Below are positions 1 through 64,000 of a stretch of DNA of 64,000 nucleotides, in pieces. A program made the translations under genes and the position numbers. Numbering within the stretch: the first letter of the stretch is position 1; each line of letters opens with the position of its first letter. The notes beneath the pieces were generated by a model. It was given only the letters and a program-made list of their open reading frames with translations, was not told the DNA's origin and searched no databases. This DNA comes from Microbacterium sp. (lineage in GTDB: Bacteria > Actinomycetota > Actinomycetes > Actinomycetales > Microbacteriaceae): contig NZ_JBIMKU010000003.1 in assembly GCF_051860965.1 (NCBI RefSeq), positions 367,671 through 431,670 on the forward strand, read 5' to 3'.

Positions 1-15
1 GCCGAGAGAGGGCAT
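1..15 (-). CDS. Probable 5' end of a gene running off the left edge (MPSLG...)
   Basis: Minus strand TAGGAT (27-22), 6 nt, then ATG at 15; same leaderless geometry as neighbouring genes; only 5 codons visible. Confidence 0.3.
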
Positions 16-41
16 CCCGTCATCCTAGGACGGGGGTGGGA

Positions 42-164
42 CTACTCCGCGCGGTCCTCGTCGTCCAGGCGACGCTCTTCGGCGGCCGCCAGGCGGTCCT
101 TCTCCTTCTGAGCGTCTTCGCGCTCTTCGCGGATCTTCTCGTGCGACTTCGAGTTGTTCGTCAT
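42..164 (-). CDS. Small highly charged protein, 40 aa (MTNNSKSHEKIREEREDAQKEKDRLAAAEERRLDDEDRAE)
   Basis: TAGGAT -10 (176-171), 6 nt, ATG; mostly host-typical codons (AAG, GAG, CGC, GAC); TAG stop at 44-42; below the ORF-track size cutoff. Confidence 0.65.
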   Translation of the reverse strand: MTNNSKSHEKIREEREDAQKEKDRLAAAEERRLDDEDRAE

Positions 165-173
165 GGCCCGATC

Positions 174-1658
174 CTAGGAGCCCGCCCGCTGCGCGGCATC
201 CCGATCCCTGTAGGCGTTGCGCTTCGTGAAGAGCGTCTCGGTCTGCTCGATGTCCATGCCCTTCGTCTCGGGGATCTTCCACGCGACGTAGATGAACGAC
301 AGCGCCGCGAACGCGGCGTACATGCCGTAGGTGAGCGGGAGCGACCAGGCCGACATCGCGGGGAACGACACGGTGATGAGGAAGTTCGCGAGCCACTGCG
401 CACCGGCCGCGACGCCGAGCGCCTTGCCGCGGATGCGGCTCGGGAAGATCTCGCCCAGCAGCACCCACACGAGGGGACCCCACGAGGCGCCGAAGCCGAT
501 GACGAAGAGGTTGGCCGCGACGAGCGCGATGGGTCCCCACGGCGCGGGGAGCGAGACCGCCCCCTCGGCGTCGGTCGTCGAGAACATGAAGCACACCGCC
601 ATCGCGGCGAGCGACAGGGTCATGATCACCGACCCCGTCAGGAGGATCGGCTTACGTCCGACGCGGTCGACGAGGAAGATCGCGACCAGGGTGACGAGCA
701 CGTTCGTGATGGACGTCACGACGCTGATCCCGAGGGATGCGGACTCGGGGAATCCGACCGACTGCCACAGGCTCGTCGAGTAGTAGAAGATCACGTTGAT
801 GCCCACGAACTGCTGGAACACCGACAGGATGATGCCGACCCACACGATGCCCTGCAGGCCGAACACCGGCCCCTTGAGCGAGACGCCGGCGTTCTTGCGG
901 TCCTCGTCGATCGTGTGGACGAGCTCGTTCACCGTCTTGTCGAGGTCGGCGGGCGGCACGAGCGTCGCGAAGATCACCTTCGCCTCGTCGACGCGCCCCT
1001 TCGCGATGAGATAGCGCGGCGATTCCGGCATCGTGAACGCGAGGATGCCGTAGACCGCGGCGGGGATGACACCGACGAGGAACATCCATCTCCACGCCTC
1101 GAGTCCGAGCCACAGGTCCTGCGACGCGCCGCCCGCGCCCCACGCGAGCAGGGCGTCGCTCAGCAGTGCGACGAAGATGCCGAGCGTGATGGCGAGCTGC
1201 TGGAGGGAGGCGAGGCCGCCGCGGATCTGCCGCGGCGCGATCTCGGCGATGTAGGCGGGAGCGACGACCGAGGCGATGCCGATGCCGAGGCCGCCCAGGA
1301 CGCGCCACAGGATGAGGTCCGGCACGCTGAAGGTGAGACCCGCGCCGATCGAGCTCACGAGGAAGAGCCCCGAGCCGAGCATCATGACCTTCAGGCGGCC
1401 CCATCGATCCGAGAGGTTGCCGGCCAGCACCGCGCCGACGGCGCAGCCCAGCAGGGCGACGGCGACGACGAAGCCCGTCAGGACGCTGCCGAGCTCGAAG
1501 TTCTGGTCGATGGAGTCGACGGCTCCGTTGATGACGGACGAGTCGAAGCCGAAGAGGAATCCGCCGACGGCGGCCGCGACGGCGAGGCCGATCGCTCGCT
1601 TGCCGTACGGACTCTTGAGGCTGAAGGAGCCCGTGGGGATCGAGTCTGGGGTGCTCAT
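174..1658 (-). CDS. Sugar porter family MFS transporter (GlcP-like glucose permease)
   Basis: [32 protein letters not shown] and PETKG motifs; many TM segments; start set at ATG 1658 by TAGCGT plus 7 nt (alternative GTG 1667). Confidence 0.92.
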
Positions 1659-1729
1659 GCTCGTCACGCTATCGCTCCGCGCGCGCGAGGGGGAGGGGCC
1701 TTTCGGAGGACGCTCGATAGGGTGTACGC

Positions 1730-2572: not shown

Positions 2573-2691
2573 CCCACGCTGTTCTCTCCGCGTTCACCGC
2601 GTCGTCCCAGGTTCGCACGAAACATGCCGGTAACATTTCGGCGAGCCTCGCCACCTCCGGGGGCCTTCGCATTCCGAGAACGAGGCACATC

Positions 2692-3609: not shown

Positions 3610-5152
3610 GCTCGACGCGCTCCCACGGCGCCGCGATCGGGAACATCCGCTCCAGCGTCGCCCGCAGCGTCTGCACGCGCACGGCCTCGGGCACTTCGGT
3701 CTCGCCGCCGTCGTTCAGGCAGAACATGTCGACGTCGGGCCGCGCGGCGATTCGCGCCATGCGCCGCAGCCCCGAGGTCATCGTCGTCTGCACGTAGCGC
3801 GTGCGGGGCTCCTTCGTCGCGACCGCACGGCCCGTCATGAGGGCGTAGTAGTGGTAGAGGCTGTTGGTCACCGAGATGTCCGACGACGAGCGGAAGCGGG
3901 ATGCCGCGGTCCGCGCGAAGTCGTCGGGGAAGGTCTGCTCGAGCTCGGCCAGCACGCTGCGGCGCAGCGGGGTCGCGCAGTGCTCGAGATCGCGCGCGAT
4001 CGTGCGCCCGAACCGCTCGCGCAGGAGCTCCCGGTTCACGCGGAGGCCGTTGTCGTGGCCGCTGCGCGAGACGTCGGGCGCCCCGATCCCGATGCGCACG
4101 TCGCACTCGACGAACTTCGTGATGCCCGACGGCGTGAAGAAGAGCTCGGGCTCGACGGCACGGCCGAAGAACATGTCGTCGTTCGAGTAGAGGAAGTGCT
4201 CGGCGAGCCCGGGGATGCGGTGCAGCTGCGCCTCGACGGCGTGCGAGTTGTGGGTCGGGAGGGTCGACGGGTCGGCGAAGAAGTCCTCGCTGCGCACGAT
4301 CGTGACCTTCGGGTGGTCGAGCAGCCACGCGGGCGCGGGAGAGTCGGTCGCGATGAAGATGCGCCGCACCCACGGCGCGTGCTGGTGCACGCTGCGCAGG
4401 GCGTAGCGCAGCTCGTCGACGTGCCGATAGCGGGCGGGGCCGGCATCCCCTTCCCCCACGACGTACTGCTCGAGCTGGGCCGCGCGCTGACGCTGGAACT
4501 CGCTCGACGAGCCGTCGACCCACGAGAACACGATGTCGACGTCCTCGGTGAACTCGTGCGGCTGCGGTGCGAACATGCCGTCGATCGTCCGCCACGAGCG
4601 ACCGAAGCGCTCGACGGTCGTCCACTCGAGGTCTTCGGTCGCGATGCGGCGGCGCGTGAGCGCGTTGTCGGAGGGTGCTTCGACGAGGCGCTCGTCGAAG
4701 CGCCAGAACTCCACCCGGGCGCCCAGGGACGCCCCGTAGCGGAGGGTTCCGCGGCGGCTGATGCGGGGGCGGTAGACACGCAGCGTGCTGGGGTCCGCGC
4801 CGGGGTCGACGGCTTCGGGCGCAGGCACGGGTACCCGGCGCTTCGCCTTGATGTAGACCGGCTCGTGCGAGCCGAGCGCCGCGAGCGCGGCCATCGCGAG
4901 GCGACGCTGGGCGACGTCGATCGCGAGGGCGTGGATGCCGCGGCTGTGGCGCACGAGGGAGATCCCCACGCCGGCGCTCTCGAGCGCATCCGCCACGAGG
5001 AGCAGATCCGCCGTGCGCGCCTCGTCGGGCGTGACGGTGTCGTGGACGAGATGGATGACGCCGTCGTCGAGCACGGTGTCCGCGCGCAGCAGGAGGTCCG
5101 TCCAGTCGGGACCCTGCGGGGGGAGCGCGGAGAGCGCGGCGATCGACGTCAT
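3557..5152 (-). CDS. Stealth family hexose-1-phosphoryl transferase (CpsY-like)
   Basis: Stealth conserved regions [34 protein letters not shown]; SD AGAGGAGG before ATG 5152. Confidence 0.9.
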
Positions 5153-6410: not shown

Positions 6411-7339
6411 GTCGCTCGGTGTCCGTCGACCGCGTGCACGTGCGCGCGCCTGGAAAGCTGAACCTCTTCTTCGAGGTCGGCGGGGTCCAGGACGACGGGT
6501 ACCACGACGTCGCGTCGGCCTATCAGGCCGTATCGCTCTACGAGGACGTCTGGGCGACGCCGTCCGACGAGTTCACGATCGCCGTGTCCGGCACCGTCGA
6601 CGTGTCGGGGGTGCCCGCCGACGATCGCAACCTCGCGCTGCGCGCCGCCCGTCTCGTCGCGAAGAAGGCGGGCTTCGGCGGGGGAGTGCACCTCGACATC
6701 GTCAAGCACGTCCCGGTCGCCGGGGGGATGGGCGGGGGATCGGCGGATGCCGCGGCCGCACTCGTCGCGTGCGACGCGCTGTGGGGCACCGACCTCGGGC
6801 CGGCGGAGCTGCATCGGCTCGCGGCGCGCCTCGGCGCCGACGTGCCGTTCTCGCTCCTCGGCGGCACGGCGATCGGCACCGGCCGCGGTGATCAGCTGAG
6901 CCCCGCTCTGGCCAAGGGGCGCTTCGACTGGGTCGTCGTGCCGTCCGACGAGGGGCTCTCGACACCCGAGGTGTACGCGCACCTCGACGAGCTGCGCGCG
7001 CATCCCGACATCCGGCCCGCCGTCCGCGTGCCCGATGTCGACCCCGGGGTGCTGCACGCGCTGCGCGCGGGCGACCCCGTGAGTCTCGCCGAGGCGCTGC
7101 GCAACGATCTGCAGGCCGCCGCGCTGTCGCTGCGCCCCGACCTGCGCGACCTGCTCGAGCGCGGGGATGCGCGGCCGTCGGCGCTCGCGGGCATCGTCTC
7201 CGGCTCGGGTCCGACGATCGCGTTCCTCGCCGCGGATCCCGAGTCGGCACTCGATCTGCAGGTGACGCTGTCCGCCGAGGGGTACGAGGCGCTGCACGTG
7301 CACGGCCCGGTCGCGGGCGCCCGCATCCTCTCGTCGTGA
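6407..7339 (+). CDS. ispE: 4-diphosphocytidyl-2-C-methyl-D-erythritol kinase
   Basis: [35 protein letters not shown]; GTGA overlap with the AKR stop. Confidence 0.95.
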
Positions 7340-7398: not shown

Positions 7399-8709
7399 AT
7401 GAGCTCCGACGACTTCCGCACCATCCCCGTCGACGAGACCTCGCGGTCGCGCCTCGCCGACGGCGGGCTCGACTACCGACTCGTCGACGTCGCATCCGAG
7501 GACTATCCGCGGTGGCTGCAGGTGGTCGCGCGCGGCTTCCTCGATCCCGAGAGCACCGACGAGCAGATCGCGGCTGCTCAGGAGCGCAGCGGCTATCGGC
7601 GCACGACGGGGGTCTACGACGCCTCCGGCCCGATGGCGGACTCGCCCGTCGCGTCGATCGCTTCGTGGGTCGCCGAGCTGACGGTACCGGGCGGGTCGAG
7701 CATCCCCTCGTGCGCGATCTCGGCCGTCACGGTGGCGCCGACCCATCGGCGTCGCGGGGTGGCGCGGGCCATGCTCGAGGGCGAGCTGCGGGCCGCGTCC
7801 TCCGCCGGGGTGCCCGTCGCGATGCTGACGGTGAGCGAGTCGACGCTCTACGGACGGTACGGCTTCGCACCGGCGGCCGCCGCGGCGACGTGGAAGATCG
7901 AGACCAAACGGGCCGCCTGGATCGGCCCGCGGCCCGAGGGCCGGCTCGACTTCGTCACGCGCGAGACGGCGCGCGAACTGCTGGCGCAGCTGCACCCCGG
8001 CGTGCGCGGGAGCGCCGCGGGCGAGATCGGTCTCGATCCGGCATGGTGGGACGGCTTCACGGGTCTGCGGCCCGGCGCGGAGCACGCGGGCGCCAAGCGT
8101 GCCGTGAGGTACGCCGACGCGACCGGCGAAGTGCGCGGGGTGGCGGTGTACACCGTGCGCGAGAACCACGACGACTTCACGAAGTCGACGGTCTCGATCG
8201 GCTACCTCGCGGCCGTGACCGACGACGCCTACGCCGCGCTCTGGCGCTTCTTCCTCGAACTCGACCTCATCGCCGAGGTGCATGCGGAACTGCTGTCGGT
8301 CGCCGAGCCGCTCCTGTGGATGATCGCGGACCAGCGCGCGGCGACGGTGACGGTGACCGATCACCAGTACGTGCGCATCCTCGATGTGCCGGTCGCGCTC
8401 GAGGCCCGCCGCTACGGTGCCTCGGGCGTCCTCGCCCTCGACGTGACCGATCCGCTCGGTTTCGCGCGAGGGCGATGGCTGCTGACGGTGGATGCCGCGG
8501 GCCACGGCTCTGTCGCCGCTCTCGACGGTGCGGCGCCCGCCGATGCCGTCGAGGTGGCACTCGGCATCGAGGAGCTGTCGGCGGTGTACCTCGGCGGAGT
8601 CTCGCTCGCGACTCTCGCCGCCGCGGGCCGCGTGTCGTCGAGCGATGTCGCCGCGGCATCCCGCGTCTTCAGCTGGCACGTGCCGCCGCGCCTGAGCATC
8701 TGGTACTGA
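7399..8709 (+). CDS. Eis-like GNAT acetyltransferase with C-terminal SCP2-like domain
   Basis: VTVAPTHRRRGVA, SESTLYGRYGF, RILDVPVALEAR; aromatic C-terminus; leaderless TAGGCT plus 6 nt. Confidence 0.85.
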   Translation: MSSDDFRTIPVDETSRSRLADGGLDYRLVDVASEDYPRWLQVVARGFLDPESTDEQIAAAQERSGYRRTTGVYDASGPMADSPVASIASWVAELTVPGGSSIPSCAISAVTVAPTHRRRGVARAMLEGELRAASSAGVPVAMLTVSESTLYGRYGFAPAAAAATWKIETKRAAWIGPRPEGRLDFVTRETARELLAQLHPGVRGSAAGEIGLDPAWWDGFTGLRPGAEHAGAKRAVRYADATGEVRGVAVYTVRENHDDFTKSTVSIGYLAAVTDDAYAALWRFFLELDLIAEVHAELLSVAEPLLWMIADQRAATVTVTDHQYVRILDVPVALEARRYGASGVLALDVTDPLGFARGRWLLTVDAAGHGSVAALDGAAPADAVEVALGIEELSAVYLGGVSLATLAAAGRVSSSDVAAASRVFSWHVPPRLSIWY

Positions 8710-11809: not shown

Positions 11810-13276
11810 ATGTCCCACACAAACACCCCCCTCGCCGTCGTCGTCCTCGCCGCCGGGCAGGGCACGCGCATGAAGTCCACGATGCCGAAGGTCCTGCACC
11901 CCATCGGGGGTCGCCCGCTCGTCGGTCACGTCCTCGCGACGGCCCGCGCACTCGCGCCGGAGTCGGTCGTCGTCGTGGTGCGGCACGAGCGCGACCGGGT
12001 CGCGGCCGCGGTCGTCGACCAGGAGCCCGCAGCGGTCGTCGTCGACCAGGACGAGATCCCCGGCACGGGTCGTGCGGTGGAGATCGCGCTCGCCGCGCTG
12101 CCCGGCTTCGAGGGCGACGTGCTCGTGCTGAGCGGCGACGTGCCCCTCCTCGAGGCCGAGACGCTCGGTGCGCTCATCGCCGCGCACCGTGCGTCGGCGG
12201 CCGCCGCGACCGTGCTGAGCGCCGTCGTCGACGACGCGCACGGGTACGGACGCGTGATCCGGGATGCCTCGGGCGCGGTGCTGCGGATCGTCGAGCAGAA
12301 GGACGCCACCCCCGACGAGGCGGCCGTCACCGAGATCAACGCGGGCGTCTACGTCTTCCGCGCGCCGGCCCTCCGCACCCAGATAGCGCTCGTCGGCACG
12401 GCGAACGCGCAGGGCGAGAAGTACCTCACCGACGTCGTCGGACTGCTGCGGAGCGCGAGCGAGTCCGTCGCGGCGTCGGCGGCTCCGGATGCCGCGGCCG
12501 CGCTCGGCGTCAACGACCGCGTCCAGCTGTCCGAGGCCGGGCGTCTGCTGAACGCCCGCACGGTGCGCCGCTGGCAGCTCGAAGGTGTCACGATCGTCGA
12601 CCCCGCGACGACGTGGATCGATGTGACGGCCACGCTCGCGCCCGACGTCACCATCCTCCCGAACACGCAGCTGCTGCGTGCGACGGTCGTCGAGTCCGGC
12701 GCCGTCATCGGTCCCGACACGACCCTCGTCGACTGCGAGGTGGGACCGGATGCCTCGGTCAAGCGCACCGACGGCACCCTCGCCGTCATCGGCGCCGGAG
12801 CATCCGTCGGACCGTTCTCGTACCTGCGGCCCGGCACCTATCTCGCGGCCGGGGGCAAGATCGGCACGTTCGTCGAGACGAAGAACTCCACGATCGGCGA
12901 GGGCAGCAAGGTCCCGCACCTGTCGTACATCGGCGACACCACGATCGGCGCCCACGTCAACATCGGAGCCGGCGCCATCACGGCCAACTACGACGACATC
13001 GCCAAGCACCGCACCGAGATCGGCGACGAGGTGCACACGGGGTCGCACAACGTGTTCGTCGCGCCCGTTAGGATCGGAGACGGAGCGAAGACCGGGGCGG
13101 GGGCAGTCGTCCGAAAGGACGTCCCCGCAGGTGCCCTGGCCCTGAGCGTGGCCCCTCAGCGCAACGTCGAGGGGTGGGTCGAGACCAACCGACCGGGCAC
13201 GGGTGCTGCGGATGCCGCGGCCAAGGCCCGGTCCGCAACGAAGGCGGACGATGGGTCGCAAGAACAAGACGATTGA
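11810..13276 (+). CDS. glmU: Bifunctional UDP-GlcNAc pyrophosphorylase / GlcN-1-P acetyltransferase
   Basis: LAAGQGTRMKS, GYGRVIR, EINAGVY, YLTD, hexapeptide domain, KVPHLSYIGD. Confidence 0.97.
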   Translation: MSHTNTPLAVVVLAAGQGTRMKSTMPKVLHPIGGRPLVGHVLATARALAPESVVVVVRHERDRVAAAVVDQEPAAVVVDQDEIPGTGRAVEIALAALPGFEGDVLVLSGDVPLLEAETLGALIAAHRASAAAATVLSAVVDDAHGYGRVIRDASGAVLRIVEQKDATPDEAAVTEINAGVYVFRAPALRTQIALVGTANAQGEKYLTDVVGLLRSASESVAASAAPDAAAALGVNDRVQLSEAGRLLNARTVRRWQLEGVTIVDPATTWIDVTATLAPDVTILPNTQLLRATVVESGAVIGPDTTLVDCEVGPDASVKRTDGTLAVIGAGASVGPFSYLRPGTYLAAGGKIGTFVETKNSTIGEGSKVPHLSYIGDTTIGAHVNIGAGAITANYDDIAKHRTEIGDEVHTGSHNVFVAPVRIGDGAKTGAGAVVRKDVPAGALALSVAPQRNVEGWVETNRPGTGAADAAAKARSATKADDGSQEQDD

Positions 13277-15686: not shown

Positions 15687-17254
15687 TCGGATCCCTCACC
15701 GCCCTGTGGAACCGCGTGTTCGCGGTGCTCGGCCGCGTCTCGATGTACCGTCTCGTGCTGCTCTCGCTCGGCACGCTGGCCGTCATCGCGCTGGTGCTCT
15801 CGTTCTTCGGGCTCGTCGCGCCCGGCCCCCTCGAGCTGGTCGTGACGCTCGTCGTCCTGTCGATCGTGTGCTCGGGAGTGGATGCCGCGGCCCAGCGCGT
15901 CCTGAAACTGCCCTGGCGCATCGAGTCGTCGCTCATCACGGCGCACATCCTGCTGTTCGTGCTGCGCCCGACGCTCGACCTCGCCGGGATCGCGGGCATC
16001 GCGCTCGCGGGCGCCGTGGCCTCCCTCTCGAAGTACGTCATCGCATGGCAGGGACGACACATCCTCAACCCCGCCGCCGTCGGCGCGACCGTCCTCACGC
16101 TGGTGAGTCTCGCGGCGCCCGCTCTCGGCGCGCCGTCCTGGTGGGTCGGCACGCCGGCGATGGCCGGACCCGTCATCCTGCTCGGCATCGCCGTCCTCTG
16201 GCGCACCGAGAAGCTCCGTGTCGTGGCGGTGTTCCTCGTCGCAGCGGTCGCGGTCGCCGTCCTGCGCACGACCGCGCAGTACCAGGCCGCAGGAGTCTCC
16301 GTCCCGATCGGCGACGTCTTCTGGCCGATCCTGTGGTCGTCGCCCTTCCTCTTCCTCGGTGCGTTCATGCTGTCCGAGCCGCTCACGCTCCCGCCGCGCC
16401 GCTGGCAGCAGTTCACCGTCGCGGGCGTCGTCGGCGTGCTCGCCGGATGGCCCATCGACCTCGGCGCCATCAGTCTCGGCCAGGAGCGCGCGCTCATCAT
16501 CGGCAACCTCGTCGCGTTCGCCTTCGCCGTCCGTTCGGCGGTGCGCCTGACGCTCGAGTCGCGCACCGACCTGACGCCGACCGTGCGCGAGCTCACTTTC
16601 CGGGCACGGCGGCCGCTGAAGTTCGTTCCGGGGCAGTATCTCGAGATCGAGGTGCCGCACCGCCACCCCGACGCGCGGGGCACGCGGCGAGAGTTCAGCA
16701 TCTCGTCGGCGCCCGAGGATCTTCCGCTCGTGAAGGTCGCGTTCCGCGAGGCATCCGGGCCCGGGGCGAAGCCGCAGAGCTCGTTCAAGCGCGCCCTCGC
16801 GCTGGTCGAACCCGGCGCAGGACTGCCGGTGACGGGTGTCTGGGGAGACTTCGTGCTGCCCAAGCGCACGGCCGCTCCGCTGCTCATGGTCGCCGCGGGG
16901 ATCGGCGTCACGCCGTTCGTGTCGCAGCTGCGGCAGGCGCAGGCGGCGCGCGAGGACCGCGACATCGTGCTCGTGTACGTCGCATCCGAGTCGTCCGAGC
17001 TCGTGTATCGCGCAGAACTCGAGGCGACCGGTGTGCCGACGATCGTGTTCACGCGCGATCGGCCCGCCGATCTGCCGCGGCACTGGGTCTGGGCGCAGGG
17101 CGTCCGACTCGACGCCGACGGCCTGCTGCGCGTCGTGCCCGACCTCTCGGCCCGCCACGCCTACATCTCGGGCCCGCCCGGCCTCATCGCCGACCTCGCG
17201 CCGGCGCTGGAGCGCGCGCGGTCGATCACGACCGACGCCTTCAGCGGCTACTGA
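15683..17254 (+). CDS. RnfD/NqrB-like membrane domain fused to an FNR-type FAD/NAD(P)H oxidoreductase
   Basis: HILNPAAVG and FMLSEPLTLP (RnfD-like NPA and FMxTDP motifs); RREFSISS (FAD); AAGIGVTPF and YISGPP (NAD binding); GTGA overlap with apbE. Confidence 0.82.
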   Translation: MIGSLTALWNRVFAVLGRVSMYRLVLLSLGTLAVIALVLSFFGLVAPGPLELVVTLVVLSIVCSGVDAAAQRVLKLPWRIESSLITAHILLFVLRPTLDLAGIAGIALAGAVASLSKYVIAWQGRHILNPAAVGATVLTLVSLAAPALGAPSWWVGTPAMAGPVILLGIAVLWRTEKLRVVAVFLVAAVAVAVLRTTAQYQAAGVSVPIGDVFWPILWSSPFLFLGAFMLSEPLTLPPRRWQQFTVAGVVGVLAGWPIDLGAISLGQERALIIGNLVAFAFAVRSAVRLTLESRTDLTPTVRELTFRARRPLKFVPGQYLEIEVPHRHPDARGTRREFSISSAPEDLPLVKVAFREASGPGAKPQSSFKRALALVEPGAGLPVTGVWGDFVLPKRTAAPLLMVAAGIGVTPFVSQLRQAQAAREDRDIVLVYVASESSELVYRAELEATGVPTIVFTRDRPADLPRHWVWAQGVRLDADGLLRVVPDLSARHAYISGPPGLIADLAPALERARSITTDAFSGY

Positions 17255-17515: not shown

Positions 17516-19000
17516 TCAGGATGCCGCGGGCTGCGCCGGCTTGACGGCCGGAAGCCGCAGCTCGAACGTCGTGTCGCCCGGTTCGCTGACGACCGAGAGC
17601 GACCCGTCGTGCGCCTCGGCGATCGCGCGGGCGATCGAGAGTCCGAGTCCCGTGCCCCCGGTCTTGCGCGCTCGGGAGCGGTCGGCGCGCGCGAAGCGCT
17701 CGAACAGCTCGTCGGCGAGGTCGGGATCGATGCCGGGGCCGTCGTCGTGCACGCGCACGACGGCCTCGTCGGCCTCATGCGCGACGCTCACGGTCACGGT
17801 CGTGCCCTCGGGCGTGTGCACCCGCGCGTTCGCGAGCAGGTTCGCGAGCACCTGCGTGAGGCGCCCGGAGTCGCCCGCGACGACGACCGGCTCGTCGTCG
17901 AGCTCGAGCACCCACTCGTGGTCGAGTCCCGCGGCCTGCGCATCGCCGACCGCCTCGATCGACAGACGAGAGAGATCGACGGATCCGTAGACGAGCTCCT
18001 GACCCTCGTCGAGCCGTGCCAGGAGCAGCAGGTCCTCGACGAGCGACGTCATCCGCAGCGACTGCGCCTGGATGCGCTCGAGCGACGACTCGGTCGTCTC
18101 GCTCAGCGAGCGGTCGCGCAGCGAGAGCTCCGAGTACCCGCGGATCGAGGCGAGCGGCGTGCGCAGCTCGTGGCTCGCGTCGGCGACGAAGCGTCGCATG
18201 CGCTCCTCGTTGCGCTGGCGCGCGTCGAGGGATGTCCCGACATGATCGAGCAGAGTGTTGAGCGCGAGCCCGACGCGGCCGATCTCGGTGCGGTCGTCGG
18301 TCTCGGCATCCGGAACCCGCTCCGTGATCGTGACCTCGCCCTGATCCAGCGGCATCGTCGCGACCCGCTCGGCGGTGTCGGCGACACTGCGCAGGGGGCG
18401 CAGTCCCGAGCGCACGACGAAGGCGATCGTCGCCGCGAGGAGCAGCAGGCCGCCGGCCGTCACGAGGGCCACGGTCGTGATGATCTGCGCGACGGTCGAC
18501 TGGACCTCGCCCAGCGAGACGCCGACGACGGCGTAGTAGCTCTGGGACGGTACGCCCGTCACGCGGTACGAGCCGAGCGCCGAGATCGAGATCGAAACGG
18601 GGGAGGGGCCTGGCGCGGTGAAGGCGTCCACGACCTCCTGCAGCTGGTCAGCCGAGAGCTCGCGCACATCGCCCGGCTCAGCGACGAAGGCGCCGGTCGT
18701 GTTCAAAGACGACGACTGCAGGACGAGCACGGTGCCCCGCTCCTGCCATCCCTGATCGAGGACATCCTGCGCCGTGAGCTCCTCACCCGTCGGCGGGAAC
18801 TGGCGCAAGAGGCTCTGCGCCGTCTCTGTCGCGGTCGACCGCAGCTTCGCGTCGAGATTCGTCTGCAGGATCTGACCGAGGATCGCGCTCGTCGCGAAGG
18901 CGATCGCGACGATGATGAACGTCACGATCCCGATGATCGTGACCATGAGACGCGACTGGAGGCTCCACCGCCTCCGTCGTGGAGCAGCGTCGGACGTCAC
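17516..19000 (-). CDS. Sensor histidine kinase with HAMP domain (TcrY/TrcS-like)
   Basis: Two TM helices, FVADASHELRTPL H-box, NLLANA N-box, DDGPGI and GTGLGL boxes. Confidence 0.95.
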   Translation of the reverse strand: MTSDAAPRRRRWSLQSRLMVTIIGIVTFIIVAIAFATSAILGQILQTNLDAKLRSTATETAQSLLRQFPPTGEELTAQDVLDQGWQERGTVLVLQSSSLNTTGAFVAEPGDVRELSADQLQEVVDAFTAPGPSPVSISISALGSYRVTGVPSQSYYAVVGVSLGEVQSTVAQIITTVALVTAGGLLLLAATIAFVVRSGLRPLRSVADTAERVATMPLDQGEVTITERVPDAETDDRTEIGRVGLALNTLLDHVGTSLDARQRNEERMRRFVADASHELRTPLASIRGYSELSLRDRSLSETTESSLERIQAQSLRMTSLVEDLLLLARLDEGQELVYGSVDLSRLSIEAVGDAQAAGLDHEWVLELDDEPVVVAGDSGRLTQVLANLLANARVHTPEGTTVTVSVAHEADEAVVRVHDDGPGIDPDLADELFERFARADRSRARKTGGTGLGLSIARAIAEAHDGSLSVVSEPGDTTFELRLPAVKPAQPAAS

Positions 19001-19725
19001 TGCGGGGCCTTGATCATGTACCCGACGCCGCGGACGGTGTGGATGAGCGGCTCACGACCCGCGTCGATCTTCTTGCGCAGGTACGAGATGTACAGCTCGA
19101 CGACCGACGAGCGACCGCCGAAGTCGTAGTTCCAGACGCGGTCGAGGATCTGCGCCTTCGAGACCACTCGGCGCTGGTTGCGCATGAGGAAGCGCAGCAG
19201 CTCGAATTCCGTCGCCGTCAGCTCGATCTCGGCTCCCGACCGCTCGACCTCGTGACTGTCCTCGTTGAGGGTGAGGTCGGCGACCCGCAGGATCGGCTCG
19301 GCGCCGCTCGCATACGCCGTGCCCGCGCGGCGCATGAGGCCGCGCAAGCGTGCGACGACCTCTTCGAGGCTGAACGGCTTCGTGACGTAGTCGTCGCCGC
19401 CGGCCGTGAGTCCTGCCACGCGGTCGCTCACGGCATCCTTCGCCGTCAGGAACAGCACGGGCACGTCGTCGCCGGACTGACGCAGCCGCTGCAGCACGGC
19501 CATGCCGTCGAGGTCGGGCATCATGATGTCGAGCACCATGGCGTCGGGGGCGAACTCGCGAGCCGTCTGCAGCGCCTGGAAGCCGGATGCCGCGGTCTTG
19601 ACCTCCCACCCCTCCATGCGCAGCGCCATCGACAGCAGGTCGGTGAGCATCTGCTCGTCGTCGACCACGAGCACGCGCAGGGGGGTGCCGTCGGGACGGG
19701 TGAGGGCGGTGGCGGGCGTCGTCAT
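18997..19725 (-). CDS. OmpR-family response regulator (TcrX/TrcR-like)
   Basis: VVDDE, LDIMMPD, FLTAKD, GGDDYVTKPF, winged helix HTVRGVGY; leaderless ATG after CATCAT plus 6 nt. Confidence 0.95.
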   Translation of the reverse strand: MTTPATALTRPDGTPLRVLVVDDEQMLTDLLSMALRMEGWEVKTAASGFQALQTAREFAPDAMVLDIMMPDLDGMAVLQRLRQSGDDVPVLFLTAKDAVSDRVAGLTAGGDDYVTKPFSLEEVVARLRGLMRRAGTAYASGAEPILRVADLTLNEDSHEVERSGAEIELTATEFELLRFLMRNQRRVVSKAQILDRVWNYDFGGRSSVVELYISYLRKKIDAGREPLIHTVRGVGYMIKAPQ

Positions 19726-19743: not shown

Positions 19744-19830
19744 TTCCTATGCGGTTCCTATGGAGCGGGCTATGCGCTCGCTGTGAGTCCGTGCCGCGGC
19801 ATCCATCAGCGGTTCATAGGCTCCGCTGAT
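19744..19830. promoter_or_regulatory. Divergent control region with four CTATG/CTGTG repeats (11, 12, 11-bp spacing) and an 8-bp inverted repeat around TTCATAG
   Basis: CTATG at 19747, 19758 and 19770; CTGTG at 19781; ATCAGCGG (19805) / CCGCTGAT (19823). Confidence 0.6.
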
Positions 19831-19895: not shown

Positions 19896-21350
19896 ATGTA
19901 CGGCACGTATCTCCGGCGCGAGCTCGCCGGCCGCAAGAAGCAGACGATCATCGTGGCCGCGGGCCTCGCGGTCGCGATCGCCCTCGTCATCATCGTCAAC
20001 TCGCTGGCCGCAGGGGTGCGGGATGCCCAAGCCCAGGCGCTCGCGTCGGTCTACGGGGTGGGCACCGACCTCACCGTGACGGGCGCTCAGGCCGAGCCCG
20101 GTCAGGGCGGGCAGCGATTCGACTTCGGAGAGGACGCCGGGACGACGGGCGAGGACGGCTCGACCGAGCTCAGCCAGTCGCGTCTCATGACCGAGCCGAT
20201 GCGCTCGACCCTCGATGCGTCGATCCTCGACACCGTGTCCGGCGTCGACGGGGTGGCCGCGGCATCCGGCGCCCTCAGCCTCACCAACATGACGTTCTCG
20301 GGCGAGCTGCCGCAGCGCCCCGCCGAGGGCACCGACCAGACGCAGCAGGCGCCGCCGGAGGGCGGGGCGCAGGGCGGATTCGGCGGCGGGTCGTTCGGCG
20401 TCGACTCCGTCACGGTGCTCGGCATCGACCCCGCGGCGGACGCGGTGGGGCCCCTGTCGGCCGTGTCGGTCGACGACGGCCGCGCTCTGGAGTCGTCGGA
20501 CGACGGCGCCTTCGTCGCCGTGCTCGACGCCACCTACGCCACGACGGCGGACCTCGGCGTCGGCGACACGATCGAGCTCGGCGGAACCTCGTTCGAGATC
20601 GTCGGTGTCGTCTCGTCCACGTCGAGCAGCGCGGACACCGCGTCGAACGCGTACATCCCCCTCGACGTGGCGCAGGAGCTCTCGGGCGCCGGCGACGTGC
20701 TCTCGACCGTGTACGTGCAGGCGGCGTCCGCCGACGGCATCGCGACCGTCCAGGCGGCGATCGAGGACGCGGTTCCGGATGCCACGGTCAGCTCGCAGTC
20801 GGACCTCGCCTCGACGGTGTCGGGCTCGCTCTCGAGCGCCTCGTCGCTCATCACGAGTCTCGGCACGTGGCTGTCGATCATCGTGCTCGCCGTCGCGGTG
20901 CTGCTCGCCGTGCTCTTCACGATCTCGGGCGTCTCGCGCCGCACGCGGGAGTTCGGCACGCTCAAGGCGATCGGCTGGTCCAACGGCCGCGTCGTCGGCC
21001 AGGTCGCCGGCGAATCCCTCGTCCAGGGCCTCATCGGCGGTGCCGTCGGCCTCGTGATCGGCCTCGCGGGCATCTGGGCGATCAATCTCGTCTCGCCGAC
21101 GATCTCGACCGCTCCTGCGGCCGAGACGATGCCGGGCGGGCCGGGCGGCATGACGCAGGGCGGGGGCCCCGGCTTCCTGGGCGGCACCGCTCAGGTATCC
21201 GCGGACGTCGTGCTCAACGCGCCGTTCACCCTGTGGGTCGTCGTCGCGGCGGTCGGACTCGCCGTGGCGGCCGGCCTCATCGCCGGCGCGTTCGGCGGCT
21301 GGCGCGCAGCGCGGCTCAGCCCGGCCGAAGCCCTCCGATCGGTGGGGTGA
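19896..21350 (+). CDS. FtsX/MacB-type ABC transporter permease
   Basis: N-terminal TM, large extracytoplasmic domain, RRTREFGTLKAIGW, C-terminal PAEALR; SD GAAGGAG. Confidence 0.9.
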   Translation: MYGTYLRRELAGRKKQTIIVAAGLAVAIALVIIVNSLAAGVRDAQAQALASVYGVGTDLTVTGAQAEPGQGGQRFDFGEDAGTTGEDGSTELSQSRLMTEPMRSTLDASILDTVSGVDGVAAASGALSLTNMTFSGELPQRPAEGTDQTQQAPPEGGAQGGFGGGSFGVDSVTVLGIDPAADAVGPLSAVSVDDGRALESSDDGAFVAVLDATYATTADLGVGDTIELGGTSFEIVGVVSSTSSSADTASNAYIPLDVAQELSGAGDVLSTVYVQAASADGIATVQAAIEDAVPDATVSSQSDLASTVSGSLSSASSLITSLGTWLSIIVLAVAVLLAVLFTISGVSRRTREFGTLKAIGWSNGRVVGQVAGESLVQGLIGGAVGLVIGLAGIWAINLVSPTISTAPAAETMPGGPGGMTQGGGPGFLGGTAQVSADVVLNAPFTLWVVVAAVGLAVAAGLIAGAFGGWRAARLSPAEALRSVG

Positions 21351-29029: not shown

Positions 29030-29049
29030 TCTCAGCAGCAGACACCGCG

Positions 29050-29093
29050 CGGATGCCGCGTCGTCACCGGTCACCGGGGCGGCGCGGCATCCG
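29050..29093 (+). terminator. Terminator hairpin after rplY built from an inverted GGATGCC pair
   Basis: Perfect 11-bp arms CGGATGCCGCG / CGCGGCATCCG extended by G-U pairs. Confidence 0.75.
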
Positions 29094-29129
29094 TCGTCTG
29101 CGGCGGTGCCGCTCTGAAAGGATGGATGC

Positions 29130-42059: not shown

Positions 42060-42510
42060 CCCGCTTCTTCTCGCGCACGTACACCTCGCGGCGCACGCGC
42101 GCGACGACGTCGCCCGCGGCATCCGTGATCTCGGTCTCGAACCACTCGAGCACCTTCGCGCCGTCCTTCGCACGTTCGCGCAGCTCGTGCGCCTTCTCGG
42201 GCGGCACAGCGAAATGCGCCGTCAGCACGCCGCGACCCGGCTTGACGAACTCGATCTCGCCACGGGTGTCCCACACGACGTAGTCGCGCCCCAGCTGGTG
42301 CATCACGAGCATGAAGAAGTACGGATCCGTCATGGCCGACATCGAGCCGCCGAATGCCGTCTTGACGTAATTGCGCGTGATGACGTTGACATGCAGCTCG
42401 ACGGTCGCGCTCGTCCAGTCCTCGGCGAAGCGGCGGACGCGGATGCCGCTCCACAGGTTCGGAGCCCACAGGCTCATGCCGATGGCCAGACGTCGAGGAG
42501 TCACGCGCAT
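42040..42510 (-). CDS. DUF4442 / hotdog-fold thioesterase-like protein
   Basis: NYVKTAFGGSMSAMTDP, VWDTRGEIEFVKPG; leaderless CACGAT plus 6 nt; 20-nt convergent overlap with the SGNH gene. Confidence 0.8.
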   Translation of the reverse strand: MRVTPRRLAIGMSLWAPNLWSGIRVRRFAEDWTSATVELHVNVITRNYVKTAFGGSMSAMTDPYFFMLVMHQLGRDYVVWDTRGEIEFVKPGRGVLTAHFAVPPEKAHELRERAKDGAKVLEWFETEITDAAGDVVARVRREVYVREKKRVTASGR

Positions 42511-42635: not shown

Positions 42636-44693
<2,058 letters not shown>

Positions 44694-45800: not shown

Positions 45801-47080
45801 TCCGCCGCGCCGCGCTCGCGAGCACGGCTGTCGCGCTCGCCCTCGCGGTCGTCGCAGCCCCCGCGGCTGCTGCCGCGCCCGTCGCGCCGTCGACGACCGA
45901 GGCCGACCCCGTGCGGGCCGCGGAGTACTGGCTCGACGACTACGGCATCCGCACGGCGTGGCAGTCGACGCGCGGCGCCGGCGTGCGCATCGCGGTGATC
46001 GACACGGGCATCGCGCGCGGTCCGGTCGAGTTCGCGGGCGCCGTCGCCGGCGGAACGGATGTCTCGGGCGCCGGCACGCCCGACGGCCGAACTCCCGTCG
46101 GCGCTGTGGACTCCAATCACGGCAGCTGGGTGGGCTCGCTCGCCGCCGGCCGCGGCACGGGCGCCGATACGGGCATGATCGGGGTGGCGCCCGAGGCGGA
46201 GCTGCTGTCGATCTCGGTCGGCTTCGGGTCGTCCGCGATCGTTCCGTTCACGGAGCAGATCGCCGAGGCGGTGCGGTGGGCCGTGGACAACGACGCCGAC
46301 ATCATCAACATGTCGCTGACGACGAACGTGCCCGATTGGGACGAGAGCTGGGACGACGCCTTCCTCTACGCCTACGAGAACGACGTCGTCGTCATCGTCG
46401 CGGCCGGCAACCGCGCCAGCGGCACGACCCGCGTCGGCGCACCGGCGACGATCCCCGGCGTGCTGACCGTCGGCGGCGTCGATCCGTCGGGCCGCGCGAG
46501 CATCGACGCCTCGACGCAGGGCATCACGATCGGCGTCTCGGCGCCGAGCGAGCAGCTCCTCGGCGTCTCGGCCGACGGGCAGCTCGTCCAGTGGAGCGGC
46601 ACGAGCGGCGCCGCGCCGATCGTGGCAGGCATCGCCGCACTCGTGCGGTCGGCGCATCCCGAACTCGACGCGAACAACGTCATCAACCGGCTCATCAAGA
46701 CCGCGAAGCCCACGCCCGCCATGAAGGCGACCCCCGACCTGCTCTACGGATACGGACTGGTGGATGCCGCGGCCGCCGTCTCGACGAGCGTGCCGTCCGT
46801 GTCGACCAACCCCATGGGCAGTCTCGAGGAGTGGATCCGCCTGTACCGGCGCGCCGACTCGGGTCCGGCCCCGGTGCAGACGTCGGCGCCCGTCGTGGTG
46901 GCTCCTCTGCCGGCCGCGGAACCCGCGCCTCAGGCGGCGTCGCCGCTCCTGCCGTCGCGGGACACCCTCCTGTACGGCACGCTCCCGCTCCTGATGCTCA
47001 CGGTCACGGCTATACTGGTGGCGCTCGGCGTCACTGCTGCTGTCCGACGCATCCGATCGGCGCGTTCGCCGAGCCGCTGA
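45797..47080 (+). CDS. S8 subtilisin-like serine protease, mycosin-like architecture
   Basis: Signal peptide; triad motifs VIDTG, HGSWVGS, GTSGAAP; YGYGLVD; Pro-rich linker and C-terminal TM. Confidence 0.9.
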   Translation: MIRRAALASTAVALALAVVAAPAAAAAPVAPSTTEADPVRAAEYWLDDYGIRTAWQSTRGAGVRIAVIDTGIARGPVEFAGAVAGGTDVSGAGTPDGRTPVGAVDSNHGSWVGSLAAGRGTGADTGMIGVAPEAELLSISVGFGSSAIVPFTEQIAEAVRWAVDNDADIINMSLTTNVPDWDESWDDAFLYAYENDVVVIVAAGNRASGTTRVGAPATIPGVLTVGGVDPSGRASIDASTQGITIGVSAPSEQLLGVSADGQLVQWSGTSGAAPIVAGIAALVRSAHPELDANNVINRLIKTAKPTPAMKATPDLLYGYGLVDAAAAVSTSVPSVSTNPMGSLEEWIRLYRRADSGPAPVQTSAPVVVAPLPAAEPAPQAASPLLPSRDTLLYGTLPLLMLTVTAILVALGVTAAVRRIRSARSPSR

Positions 47081-59655: not shown

Positions 59656-59669
59656 CACTGCCGGCCAGA

Positions 59670-60427: not shown

Positions 60428-60429
60428 GG

Positions 60430-61173: not shown

Positions 61174-61213
61174 GTCCCCAGGGTAGGCCCATCCTCATGC
61201 CCGGGGGCGTACA

Positions 61214-61250: not shown

Positions 61251-61285
61251 CCGCGTGACAGGCGCGGGACGGGTAGCGTAGGCGT

Positions 61286-62071
61286 GTGGCGCGGGCATCG
61301 TCGAACGAGGGCAGGGGACCCCTCTATCGGCTCTACATCAATCGGCTGCGTCGACGCCTCGACCCCGCCGCCGTGCCTCGCCACCTCGCGATGATGATCG
61401 ACGGCAACCGGCGCTGGGCGCGCCAGCTCGGCTACGACTCGGCGGCGCACGGTCACCGCGCGGGGGCGGCCAAGATGCGCGAGTTCCTCGAATGGTGCGA
61501 CGACCTCGGCATCCGCGTGGTGTCGCTGTACCTGCTCTCCAACGACAACCTGGTCAAGCGCGACTCGCAGGAGCTCTCGGACCTCATCGAGATCATCGCC
61601 GAACTCGCGGAGCAGCTCTCGCACGAGCGCGATTGGCGCGTGCAGCACGTCGGTCGGTCCGACCGCCTCCCGCCCGAGCTCGCGCGCGTCCTGGTCGCGG
61701 CACAGGACCGCACGCGCGACCACACCGGGATGCACGTCAACCTGGCGGTCGGGTACGGCGGCCGTGGCGAGATCGTGGATGCCGTGCGCAGCATCATCGC
61801 CCAGCACGACGAGGGCGGCGGATCGCTCGAAGAGCTCGCGGCATCCCTCACGCCCGAGCAGATCGGCGAGCACCTCTACACCGGCGGGCAGCCCGATCCC
61901 GACCTCGTGATCCGCACATCGGGGGAGCAGCGACTGAGCGACTTCCTCCTGTGGCAGTCGGCCCACAGCGAGTTCTACTTCGTAGAAGCGCTCGGGCCGG
62001 ATCTGCGCGAGGTGGACTTCCTGCGTGCGATCCGTGCCTTCGCGGACCGCGACCGCCGCTTCGGCGGCTGA
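61286..62071 (+). CDS. cis-isoprenyl diphosphate synthase (Rv1086-like short-chain Z-FPP synthase)
   Basis: MIDGNRRWA, LSNDN, VGYGGR, IRTSGEQRLSDFLLWQ, RRFGG; leaderless TAGCGT plus 6 nt. Confidence 0.93.
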   Translation: MARASSNEGRGPLYRLYINRLRRRLDPAAVPRHLAMMIDGNRRWARQLGYDSAAHGHRAGAAKMREFLEWCDDLGIRVVSLYLLSNDNLVKRDSQELSDLIEIIAELAEQLSHERDWRVQHVGRSDRLPPELARVLVAAQDRTRDHTGMHVNLAVGYGGRGEIVDAVRSIIAQHDEGGGSLEELAASLTPEQIGEHLYTGGQPDPDLVIRTSGEQRLSDFLLWQSAHSEFYFVEALGPDLREVDFLRAIRAFADRDRRFGG

Positions 62072-62090
62072 GCAGTGCCAGAATGTGAGC

Positions 62091-63212
62091 GTGACGGACC
62101 TCGAGGGCTTCCACGCCTCGTTCGACGGCGAACCCGGCTACCTGGACTGGGCCGCGTTCGGACCGCTGTCTCCCGCCGTGCGGGCCGAAGCCCAGGCGGA
62201 CACGGAGCTGCTGGGCTCGGGTAGGCGCTCGAGCATCGAGCTCGTCGACGCGCACGTAGCCGAGGCGCGCGAGCTCGTCGCGGAGCTGATCGGCGCCCCG
62301 GTCGACGAGGTCGTGCTGCAGCCGTCGACGACCTACGGCATCATGCAGGCGTTCTACGGGCTCGCGGGCGGCCTCATGCTGTCGCGCACCGAATTCCCCA
62401 ACCTCACGGTCGCGGCGACGCGCGCGAGCAATGCACTGGGCTCCCTCCACCTCCAGTGGCTCGATTCCGACGACGGCTTCGTCACTCCCGACCTCGTGCG
62501 CGAATCGCTCACCGACGACACGACCGCGCTCGCCGTCAGCCTCGTGGACGCCCGCACGGGCTATCGCGCGGACCTTCCTGCGCTGCGCGACGTGATCGGC
62601 GACCGACTCCTCATCGTCGACGCCATCCAGGGATTCGGCGTTGTCGATGTCGACTACGCGGCGGCGGATGTGGTGTGCTCGAACGGCTACAAGTGGCTGC
62701 GCGCGGGCCGCGGCACGGGATTCGCGTGGTTCGGCGAGCGCGCGCTCGAGCGGATCGCCCCCGTCCTCTCGGGGTACGTCGGCATCGACGGCGAGCTGTC
62801 CTTCGGCGTGGTCCCGGTGCCTTCCGCATCGTCGGCGGCGTTCACCGTGTCGCGCACCGACAGCCTCGCGGCAGCCCGCCTCGCGACGGCCCTCCGCGAG
62901 GTGCGGGATGCCGGGATCGGCGCCATCGAGAGCGAGATCGCACAGCGCACGGGCGACGTGATGTACTTCGCCGACCGCTACGAGGTGCCCGTGATCACTC
63001 CGCGGGAGCCGGCGCAGCGCGCCGGGATCGTGACCCTGGCGCCCGCGCCGCAGGATGCGGCGCCGCTCGCGGCATCCCTCGCCAATCACGGGCTCGCCGT
63101 CACCCTGCGCGCCGGACTCGTGCGCGTGTCGCCGCATGTGGGCACGGCTGCCGACACGCTGCGCCTGTTCGGCGATGCCCTCGCGGCGTTCTCGTCGTCG
63201 CGCGTGTGGTGA
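62091..63212 (+). CDS. Class V PLP-dependent aminotransferase (cysteine desulfurase/kynureninase-like)
   Basis: YLDWAAFGP, VDAIQGFG, NGYKWL PLP lysine, RVSPH; CAGAAT plus 6 nt GTG. Confidence 0.85.
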   Translation: MTDLEGFHASFDGEPGYLDWAAFGPLSPAVRAEAQADTELLGSGRRSSIELVDAHVAEARELVAELIGAPVDEVVLQPSTTYGIMQAFYGLAGGLMLSRTEFPNLTVAATRASNALGSLHLQWLDSDDGFVTPDLVRESLTDDTTALAVSLVDARTGYRADLPALRDVIGDRLLIVDAIQGFGVVDVDYAAADVVCSNGYKWLRAGRGTGFAWFGERALERIAPVLSGYVGIDGELSFGVVPVPSASSAAFTVSRTDSLAAARLATALREVRDAGIGAIESEIAQRTGDVMYFADRYEVPVITPREPAQRAGIVTLAPAPQDAAPLAASLANHGLAVTLRAGLVRVSPHVGTAADTLRLFGDALAAFSSSRVW

Positions 63213-63395
63213 GGCATCCGGAGTTCACATACTCGTAACCCGCGCACCGCGTGTCGGAGTGGGTCGGTGTCGGTGGGCGGACGTACGTTCATCTCATCGG
63301 GCAAGGAGCCCGTTCGAGTCGGCCGTACGGACCACGACTCGTGACCCTGGTCGACTCGTGACTGCCGGGTTTCCCACCCGGGGCGGGAGTGGGTT

Positions 63396-64000
63396 GTGAC
63401 CACACGAGCTACAACGGATCAGCGCAGCACGGTCGAGACCGAGGGCGAGGTCGAGCAGGATCTGCGCACCTACGTCCTCGACACGTCGGTCCTCCTGAGC
63501 GATCCGCGAGCGTTCTTCCGATTCGCCGAGCACAACGTCGTGATCCCCGTCGTGGTGATCACGGAGCTCGAGGGCAAGCGCCACGACCCCGAGATCGGCT
63601 ATTTCGCCCGCCAGGCCCTGCGTCACCTCGATGAGCTTCGCATCGAGCACGGTCGACTCGACTTCCCCGTCCCCGTCGGCGAGGGCGGCACACTGCGCGT
63701 CGAGCTCACGAACACGGATGCGAGTGTTCTCCCGGCCGGCATGCGCCTCGGCGACAACGACACCCGCATCCTGGCCGTCGCGATGAATCTCGCGCAGGAC
63801 GGGCAGGAGGTCACGGTCGTCTCCAAGGACCTCCCGATGCGCGTGAAGGCGGCATCGCTCGGAGTCATCGCCGAGGAGTATCTCGCCGAGCAGGCGATCG
63901 ACTCCGGCTGGACGGGCATCGCCGACATCGCCGTGTCGGGCGACGACATGAGCGACCTCTACGAGAGCGAGATCGCGACGAGTGACGATGTGCGGGGCTT
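63396..64000 (+). CDS. phoH2: PIN-PhoH (PhoH2) protein, N-terminal part truncated by the window end
   Basis: [41 protein letters not shown]; open to the window end; missing from the ORF track. Confidence 0.92.

Follow-up and report, generated by a model that had tools for sequence, protein, structure and literature searches.

A hyper-abundant, lineage-specific DNA word in Microbacteriaceae and its possible role as a strand-specifically read self tag

The genome of a Microbacterium species carries a short DNA word, GGATGCC(G), that is kept at about one copy per kb and is preserved at orthologous sites among relatives that share it, whereas relatives with the word GGATCC preserve GGATCC instead. 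The word came to attention in one stretch of 64,000 nucleotides (the window; C3:367671-431670 of the source assembly, here G000; 3.84 Mb, 69% GC), for which a first-pass annotation had proposed a pervasive iterated motif serving as an uptake or methylation-type signal; the HisRS of the source is nearest to that of the M. trichothecenolyticum group (~90% identity). We propose, with a probability of roughly 40%, that GGATGCC(G) is a self tag of the kind represented by the DNA uptake sequences (DUS) of Neisseriaceae, the uptake signal sequences (USS) of Pasteurellaceae and cyanobacterial HIP1 (highly iterated palindrome 1), a role in uptake or recombination and a specific reader being postulated.

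Results

The 11-mer GGATGCCGCGG occurs 19 times in the window (11 copies on the forward strand and 8 on the reverse strand), as compared to 0.39 copies expected and a maximum of 3 in dinucleotide-preserving shuffles; the hexamer GGATGC/GCATCC occurs 171 times vs. 59 ± 6.6 expected in dinucleotide shuffles, and 111 of these 171 hexamers extend to GGATGCC/GGCATCC. All 19 of the 11-mers lie exactly where the first-pass annotation had placed them, and its hand count of about 165 hexamers was close to the number found. The excess extends to the whole genome: by a maximal-order Markov model, no hexamer is more over-represented than GGATGC (9,354 vs. 6,577, z = 34), and GGATGCCGCGG is the commonest 11-mer with 707 copies, its one-letter neighbours having 3–336 copies.

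Two shuffles were applied to the gene set (3,409 called genes, 90% of the DNA): one permutes synonymous codons within genes; the other swaps third positions only among sites with the same amino acid, the same first two codon letters and the same next letter, and preserves the protein, the codon usage and every dinucleotide. GGATGCCGCGG is found 369 times in genes vs. 22 expected (16- to 17-fold, equally under both shuffles) and its reverse complement 270 times vs. 35–44 expected, with enrichment of the 11-mer in each reading frame and in both orientations. The stricter shuffle puts GGATGCC first among the enriched coding 7-mers (5,192 vs. 1,913), and nearly all the other top 7-mers overlap it. 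The earlier impression that the motif forces codons otherwise disfavoured here (GAT and GCA-TCC) is borne out: GAT accounts for 21.2% of Asp codons overall, for 71.2% (2,073/2,911) in the context G-GAY-GCC and for 21.9% in the context C-GAY-GCC; GCA rises from 7.6% of Ala codons overall to 57% before TCC, and TCC from 21% to 75% after GCA. Two separate rare codon choices, GCA with TCC and GAT with GCC, are made jointly.

Non-coding and coding DNA do not differ in the density of the word (2.42 hexamers per kb each; 0.36 and 0.38 10-mers per kb, respectively), and GGATGCCG is the commonest 8-mer in intergenic DNA. The word is thus present on both strands, in all frames and between genes, much as the first-pass annotation had described, and the codon-shuffle comparison suggested there leaves the enrichment intact when protein, codon usage and dinucleotides are preserved. 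The excess is not a coding artefact. It could be argued that amino-acid, codon or dicodon bias produces the word as a by-product with no signal at the DNA level, given that the commonest frames encode ordinary dipeptides (D-A, A-S and G-I) in an Ala-rich proteome; such an origin is hardly credible, and is refuted by the shuffles, by the equal non-coding density and by the double dissociation of conservation described below. The occurrence in all frames and both orientations, the lack of the word in related families and the different words carried by sister species also speak against it.

The word is a property of the family rather than of the order. The 11-mer is present at 15–785 copies in 24 other Microbacterium genomes and at 5–38 copies, the background level, in 16 other families of the order; these families mostly have genomes of similar size. 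In 121 Microbacteriaceae genomes from 95 genera, the median excess of the octamer over its reversed control is 6.3-fold (range 0.7- to 34-fold), and the excess is at least 5-fold in 67 of the 121 genomes and less than 2-fold in five.

A survey of HisRS-linked 21-kb loci from 80 genomes revealed dialects within Microbacterium. GGATGCC is missing from a clade comprising M. azadirachtae, M. panaciterrae and their relatives, in which the top hexamer is GGATCC (CGGATCCG); the GGATCC state is also found in M. karelineae and, less strongly, in M. stercoris. GGATCC is likewise the top hexamer in G045 (genus g22), G078 (g54) and G044 (g21, as AGGATCC), and is enriched without being the top hexamer in G138 (g21); no outstanding word was found in G080, G095 and G139. 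By the HisRS tree, the GGATCC state must have arisen at least twice in the genus Microbacterium. Sister species may differ in their word (M. stercoris vs. Microbacterium sp. NPDC096154), and G045, with GGATCC, belongs to the same genus as the wordless G139.

We compared orthologous sites in pairs of loci that are 86–94% identical. In species with GGATGCC, this word (n = 788) is conserved at 66.0% of sites (about 48% for controls, both all 7-mers and 7-mers of equal A/T count), whereas its default synonymous form GGACGCC is conserved at 25.9% (controls about 48%) and GGATCC at 39% (controls 52%); in species with GGATCC, it is GGATCC (n = 460) that is conserved, at 78.3% of sites (controls 57–60%), together with CGGATCCG (71%; controls 49%), whereas GGATGCC is neutral (55%; controls 54%). 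This double dissociation shows a lineage-specific force that preserves each lineage's own word. The commonest replacement of GGACGCC in GGATGCC species is GGATGCC. In comparisons at ~80% identity, turnover of the positions has erased any visible conservation; of 18 sites with GGATGCC in the window, 4 carry GGATCCC in M. karelineae.

The core of the word is GGATGCC, and the next letter is G in 64–69% of copies, followed by C in 50–56% and by G in 57–59%. The C-variant GGACGCC does not have this tail, and the tail therefore belongs to the word. As a core with a soft tail is what is found, GGATGCCGCGG is the most favoured extension and not the unit itself; the fixed 11-mer of the first-pass annotation gives way to GGATGCC(G) with a weaker CG(G) tail. 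Mobile repeats of the REP or MITE type, intergenic units that exceed the core in length and spread by transposition, do not match the word, as 90% of copies are in-frame within genes and their flanks hold little information.

The copies show no polarity along the chromosome. Their orientation is less heterogeneous than binomial over 71 bins of 50 kb (chi-square 43 on 71 degrees of freedom) and is correlated genome-wide with neither GC skew nor gene strand, and adjacent copies share their orientation slightly less often than by chance (0.46). A leading/lagging comparison had been advised as a means to recognize the polarity typical of Chi or of FtsK-orienting polar sequences (KOPS), and such polarity is absent. 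An apparent switch from forward to reverse orientation near 19.7 kb in the window is attributable to chance by the genome-wide orientation test.

The spacing of the copies depends on strand. Copies are distributed evenly along genes, and counts per interval are under-dispersed in core DNA, most clearly on each strand taken singly (variance-to-mean ratio 0.78–0.87 vs. at least 0.99 for 25 of 25 control words). Same-strand copies 12–100 bp apart are found at 0.59 of expectation, as compared to a median of 1.25 for 40 control 7-mers of similar frequency and to 1.17 for GGACGCC. Convergent pairs (GGATGCCG...CGGCATCC) less than 25 bp apart are enriched 3.5-fold, whereas divergent close pairs stand at 0.27-fold; the spacers between the two hexamers of convergent pairs favour 1, 4 and 10 nt (68, 50 and 50 cases), and a 7-nt spacer is nearly absent (3 cases) despite fitting the same reading frame. 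Convergent pairs inside genes translate to D-A-(x)n-A-S. GGATGCC reaches 2.38 copies per kb in convergent intergenic regions vs. 1.5–1.65 in other spacers, and inverted pairs number 10.6 per 100 convergent intergenic regions vs. about 4 elsewhere, which is a modest effect. The per-strand evenness and the same-strand-only avoidance suggest a reader that acts on a single strand or with a single direction and gains less from copies lying close together, and argue against a purely mutational origin.

The same observations bear on the proposal that the word has no function and accumulates by neutral biased repair or gene conversion, near-cognate mismatches being resolved toward GGATGCC (or GGATCC). 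Several features are those expected of such a process: GGACGCC is unusually unstable and is mostly replaced by GGATGCC; the one-letter neighbours of GGATGCC are mildly depleted (0.62–0.94 of expectation); coding and non-coding densities are equal; and the enrichment is continuous among genomes. Elhai put forward a model of this kind for HIP1 (PMC4390886). However, biased repair predicts neither the per-strand under-dispersion nor the same-strand-only avoidance and the convergent/divergent asymmetry; none of the seven to eight positions is left free, and synonymous choices are coupled in several cases; and a Vsr-type mechanism is unlikely because G000 and G110 have no m5C methyltransferase. We regard biased repair as an unlikely source of the word, though the most probable one after the self tag.

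The word distinguishes native from foreign DNA. There are 1.25–2.0 copies of GGATGCC per 5 kb where the GC content is below 0.65 vs. 7.6–9.3 in core DNA, a density 4–7 times lower, whereas composition alone would account for a shift of some 10%; low-GC islands make up the longest stretches devoid of the word. In the lytic Microbacterium phage Guetzie (OR253907, 64% GC), the one phage considered, the octamer is neither enriched nor avoided (7 octamers in 39.8 kb, 0.18 per kb). This phage is poor in certain palindromes (AGCGCT 28 vs. 72, AGGCCT 14 vs. 48, ACCGGT 6 vs. 27), which is the usual sign of restriction avoidance. One low-GC (61–64%) island of G000, C3:199357-209272 (−), is nearly devoid of the word and looks like a defence island: its DUF1156-type methyltransferase (TDPPYYDNIGYSD) has as neighbours on its flanks a 1,135-aa DUF499-like protein and a 1,174-aa helicase with a C-terminal nuclease-like domain.

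Scarcity in islands and in a lytic phage, together with even spacing in core DNA and lineage-specific conservation of sites, is also what a nucleoid- or chromosome-organising protein could leave behind, the word being the dense landing site of a family-specific DNA-binding protein; the palindromic dialect GGATCC would suit a dimeric binder, and for HIP1 such a role has been suggested by Xu et al. (2018; PMC5861425). We consider such a protein an unlikely explanation: no candidate turned up, binding to double-stranded DNA leaves the same-strand-only avoidance unexplained, and the healthy relatives G080, G095 and G139 live without such a word.

Alternatively, the word could act in the manner of Chi on a helicase-nuclease of the AdnAB type, signalling self DNA to an end-resection machine; it would be read on one strand and in one direction, and both orientations would be equally useful at two-ended breaks. 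The copy sets of the two strands are mutually independent, as such reading would have it; islands and the phage lack this marker of self; and its specificity changes between lineages, as that of Chi is known to do between genera. The lack of orientation bias and of correlation with GC skew nevertheless sets the word apart, since to our knowledge every known Chi is skewed; a density of ~1 per kb is high for a Chi site, and we know of no Chi for AdnAB. A Chi-like regulation of AdnAB is, in our judgement, very improbable. Chi of RecBCD, the cognate enzyme being missing, is excluded because RecC is absent from 24 of 24 Microbacteriaceae tested; of 12 other families in the order, 7 have RecC (36 genomes searched in all).

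Our search for a reader covered DNA methyltransferases and proteins of DNA uptake. No match to the m5C methyltransferases (PF00145) was found in G000, G110, G098 and G127, several strongly enriched genomes among them, and no gamma-class methyltransferase was found in G000. A regular-expression screen of six-frame open reading frames returned only housekeeping methyltransferases, the DUF1156 enzyme of the island and one conserved beta-class orphan. This orphan (C1:76639-77484 (−), motif IV DPPF) is an amino-methyltransferase whose gene overlaps the stop of a lipoate-protein-ligase-like gene; it is the sole core-genome DNA methyltransferase of G000, and among characterised enzymes it is closest to M.RsrI, YhdJ and CcrM, which are adenine methyltransferases.

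The orphan could in principle mark the word for repair, replication control or self-recognition, in the way that DmtA and DmtC mark HIP1. An orthologue is present in 110 of 121 family genomes (65–94% identity), including genomes of 0.9–1.5 Mb; the 11 genomes without it are less enriched in the word (median 2.9 vs. 6.8; Mann-Whitney p = 0.0014, no phylogenetic correction being applied), which is a weak association; and G095 and G139 have neither word nor enzyme. However, the orphan is present in the unenriched genomes G027, G030, G032 and G080, is ~68% identical in three other families that show no word enrichment, and is lacking both in G045, a GGATCC genome, and in G116, in which the word is enriched 10-fold. 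Moreover, genomes with GGATGCC, genomes with GGATCC, the word-free G080 and the outgroup G027 share a virtually identical core of the enzyme, with variation confined to a low-complexity loop after the DPPF motif. With a core almost invariant across dialects, and being present in word-free genomes, the orphan cannot set the dialect and is not sufficient for the word; its wide conservation points to an epigenetic housekeeping function of the CcrM kind. A methylation-linked signal is distinctly unlikely, and the methylation branch of the first-pass proposal so far lacks support.

The extra PF01555 genes of G045 and G078 were rejected as readers of GGATCC: they lie in phage-like DNA in G045 and in a recombinase-flanked island in G078, and are not common to the GGATCC genomes. 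In G078 (L083:8040-11736; C1 ~2,314–2,318 kb), a methyltransferase with the motif SPPY (N4-cytosine type) stands beside an McrB-like AAA ATPase and an McrC-like gene in an island flanked by serine recombinases, and this enzyme is not found in the other GGATCC genomes. G045 encodes a ParB-domain/methyltransferase fusion with the motif DPPY (L082:7805-9088 (−)) in a region with portal- and terminase-like phage genes, and, in a phage-type region, a 225-aa DPPY methyltransferase adjoining several pentapeptide-repeat proteins (L084:4540-5217 (+)).

ComEC is present in 31 of 31 genomes tested and Tad-type ATPases are present in all genomes tested, word-free ones included in both cases. As to receptor variants that would match the dialects, the ComEC proteins and the Tad-type and PilB/PilT ATPases do not discriminate between genomes, and no candidate receptor came to light. 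G000 itself has a type IV pilus cluster with PilB-like and PilT-like ATPases (C11:37094-40458), and such a cluster is found in about one third of the family genomes sampled.

Discussion

Our results require a force on the double-stranded word as a whole, with specificity at seven or eight positions and symmetry between strands, independent of coding and dependent on lineage. A scaled coefficient of about 2 would raise GAT from 21% to 71%, from which we infer that this force is weak at each site.

We propose that GGATGCC(G) is a lineage-specific self word that would be held at its density of about one copy per kb by a force exerted neither through proteins nor through single bases. A putative DNA-processing machine for the uptake or recombination of same-species DNA would read the word one strand at a time; fragments bearing the word would be taken up or recombined preferentially, and therefore word-creating alleles would spread and word-destroying alleles would be lost, as a molecular drive with or without benefit. 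The specificity of the reader may flip between GGATGCC and GGATCC, or may be lost, whereupon the genome would re-equilibrate. Stated in full, the idea is slightly more tentative: it would amount to a previously undescribed strand-specific recognition of own DNA, by a machine that reads a word of 7–8 letters about once per kb and that flips between GGATGCC and GGATCC, or is lost, even between sister species, and it would provide the first sequence-specific uptake or recombination signal in Gram-positive bacteria.

Several points weigh against such a self tag. Conservation cannot separate selection from biased gene conversion; the same-strand-only avoidance and the asymmetry of convergent and divergent pairs (3.5- vs. 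0.27-fold) are not simply predicted by uptake; and USS are richer between genes, unlike the equal density found here. We know of no sequence-specific uptake in Gram-positive bacteria. No reader emerged among the methyltransferases, ComEC, Tad-type ATPases, PilB/PilT and RecBCD screened: ComEC and the Tad-type ATPases are universal and therefore uninformative on the word, and PilB/PilT clusters occur patchily, with no relation to the degree of enrichment. Finally, a Hi-C study reports the natural transformation of a Microbacterium sp. by free plasmid DNA (PMC10257627); this report and the presence of ComEC are hints of uptake, but the plasmid was a foreign synthetic one, which argues against a strict requirement for the word.

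The DUS of Neisseriaceae (GCCGTCTGAA and its dialects) and the USS of Pasteurellaceae (AAGTGCGGT) are nevertheless, with HIP1, the systems that the word resembles most in layout: each is a short non-palindromic word at ~1 copy per kb, unpolarised on both strands, in the least costly coding frames, with inverted pairs at gene ends and even spacing, scarce in foreign DNA and restricted to one family with dialects. The likeness to DUS/USS or HIP1 noted in the first-pass annotation thus stands for both strands, all frames, genes and spacers, inverted pairs at gene ends and lineage-restricted dialects, and so far lacks support for methylation. The differences are that the host is Gram-positive and of high GC content; that there is no known receptor comparable to ComP of DUS; that genes and spacers hold the word equally densely, one dialect is palindromic and some members are wordless; and that the dialects differ by the presence of a single letter (GGATGCC vs. 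GGATCC) and switch between sister species.

HIP1 (GCGATCGC) and the alternate HIPs of cyanobacteria (PMC4390886, PMC5861425, PMC13756078) are alike in their large excess over codon-aware expectation in genes and spacers, in conservation at orthologous sites, in having alternate words in some lineages and none in a few, and in a function that is debated; HIP1 has been proposed as a methylation-dependent uptake signal (PMC13756078; bioRxiv 10.1101/2024.09.10.611283). By contrast, the main word GGATGCC is non-palindromic and only the dialect GGATCC is palindromic, and no cognate methyltransferase tracks the word or its dialects in Microbacteriaceae.

Chi (e.g. GCTGGTGG for RecBCD), KOPS and other architecture-imparting sequences share with the word an over-representation in the core genome and possibly a self mark carried on one strand, but differ from it in their replication-oriented skew and, for Chi, in a density several times lower; RecC is, moreover, absent from the 24 Microbacteriaceae tested. 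Very-short-patch repair in E. coli (Dcm/Vsr, CCWGG) is alike in that a near-cognate, here GGACGCC, drains into a favoured word; unlike it, the bias in Microbacteriaceae is stronger by a factor of ten or more, runs from C to T and so against the direction of Vsr repair, and is not accompanied by an m5C methyltransferase in G000 or G110.

Hyper-abundant self words are known from few lineages, namely Neisseriaceae, Pasteurellaceae and cyanobacteria. Their origin is disputed between selection and molecular drive, and it is still debated what reads USS and what HIP1 does. The word of Microbacteriaceae, which are common soil, plant and clinical actinobacteria, adds a third, independent and very large case. 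Full-text literature searches with the word and Microbacterium, and with the word and its complement, yielded only primers and no description of it, in agreement with the first-pass annotation, which knew of no described equivalent in Microbacteriaceae. The family offers natural experiments: two interchangeable words, wordless lineages and sister species that differ. With such on, off and switched contrasts, what reads these words and why they accumulate become directly testable by comparative genomics and simple genetics; if a self-recognition system is indeed at work, sister pairs in these states would let its reader be found. The word may also affect the transformability of Microbacteriaceae, and it is a sensitive marker of native vs. 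foreign DNA in their genomes.

Features of the window and further observations

Three structures in the window are built from inverted copies (Table 1). The palindrome within hisS consists of two overlapping convergent 11-mers (40988 on the forward and 40993 on the reverse strand) and translates to D-A-A-A-S. The hairpins in the rplY/ctc-pth spacer and 5' of eno, which had been read as terminators formed by inverted pairs, are real, as is the hisS palindrome; they are not canonical terminators, as a check for a T-run at the two hairpins found none at either.

Table 1. Copies of the word and structures derived from it in the 64-kb window
Feature	Position	Strand	Remarks
GGATGC/GCATCC hexamers (span)	12..63771	both	171 copies scattered over genes and spacers
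GGATGCCGCGG copy	3899..3909	+	exact match
GGATGCCGCGG copy	4933..4943	+	exact match
GGATGCCGCGG copy	6745..6755	+	exact match
GGATGCCGCGG copy	8490..8500	+	exact match
GGATGCCGCGG copy	8651..8661	-	exact match
GGATGCCGCGG copy	12487..12497	+	exact match
GGATGCCGCGG copy	13210..13220	+	exact match
GGATGCCGCGG copy	15880..15890	+	exact match
GGATGCCGCGG copy	17519..17529	+	exact match
GGATGCCGCGG copy	19585..19595	+	exact match
GGATGCCGCGG copy	19794..19804	-	exact match
GGATGCCGCGG copy	20257..20267	-	exact match
GGATGCCGCGG copy	22403..22413	-	exact match
Hairpin, rplY/ctc-pth spacer	29047..29097	+	arms CGGATGCCGCG / CGCGGCATCCG; -44.3 kcal/mol, z -6.1
GGATGCCGCGG copy	33737..33747	-	exact match
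Perfect 20-bp palindrome GCGGATGCCG/CGGCATCCGC	40986..41005		within hisS; -19.4 kcal/mol, z -3.4
GGATGCCGCGG copy	42114..42124	-	exact match
GGATGCCGCGG copy	42873..42883	-	exact match
Hairpin 5' of eno	43311..43349	+	arms ACCGGATGCC / GGCATCCGGT; -27 kcal/mol, z -5.3
GGATGCCGCGG copy	46762..46772	+	exact match

Homopolymer G/C runs of the genome depart oddly from expectation: GGGGGGG falls 16-fold short of its number in synonymous shuffles of the genes (18 vs. 286), and yet GGGGGGGG is 5.5-fold above its Markov expectation genome-wide (47 vs. 8.5).

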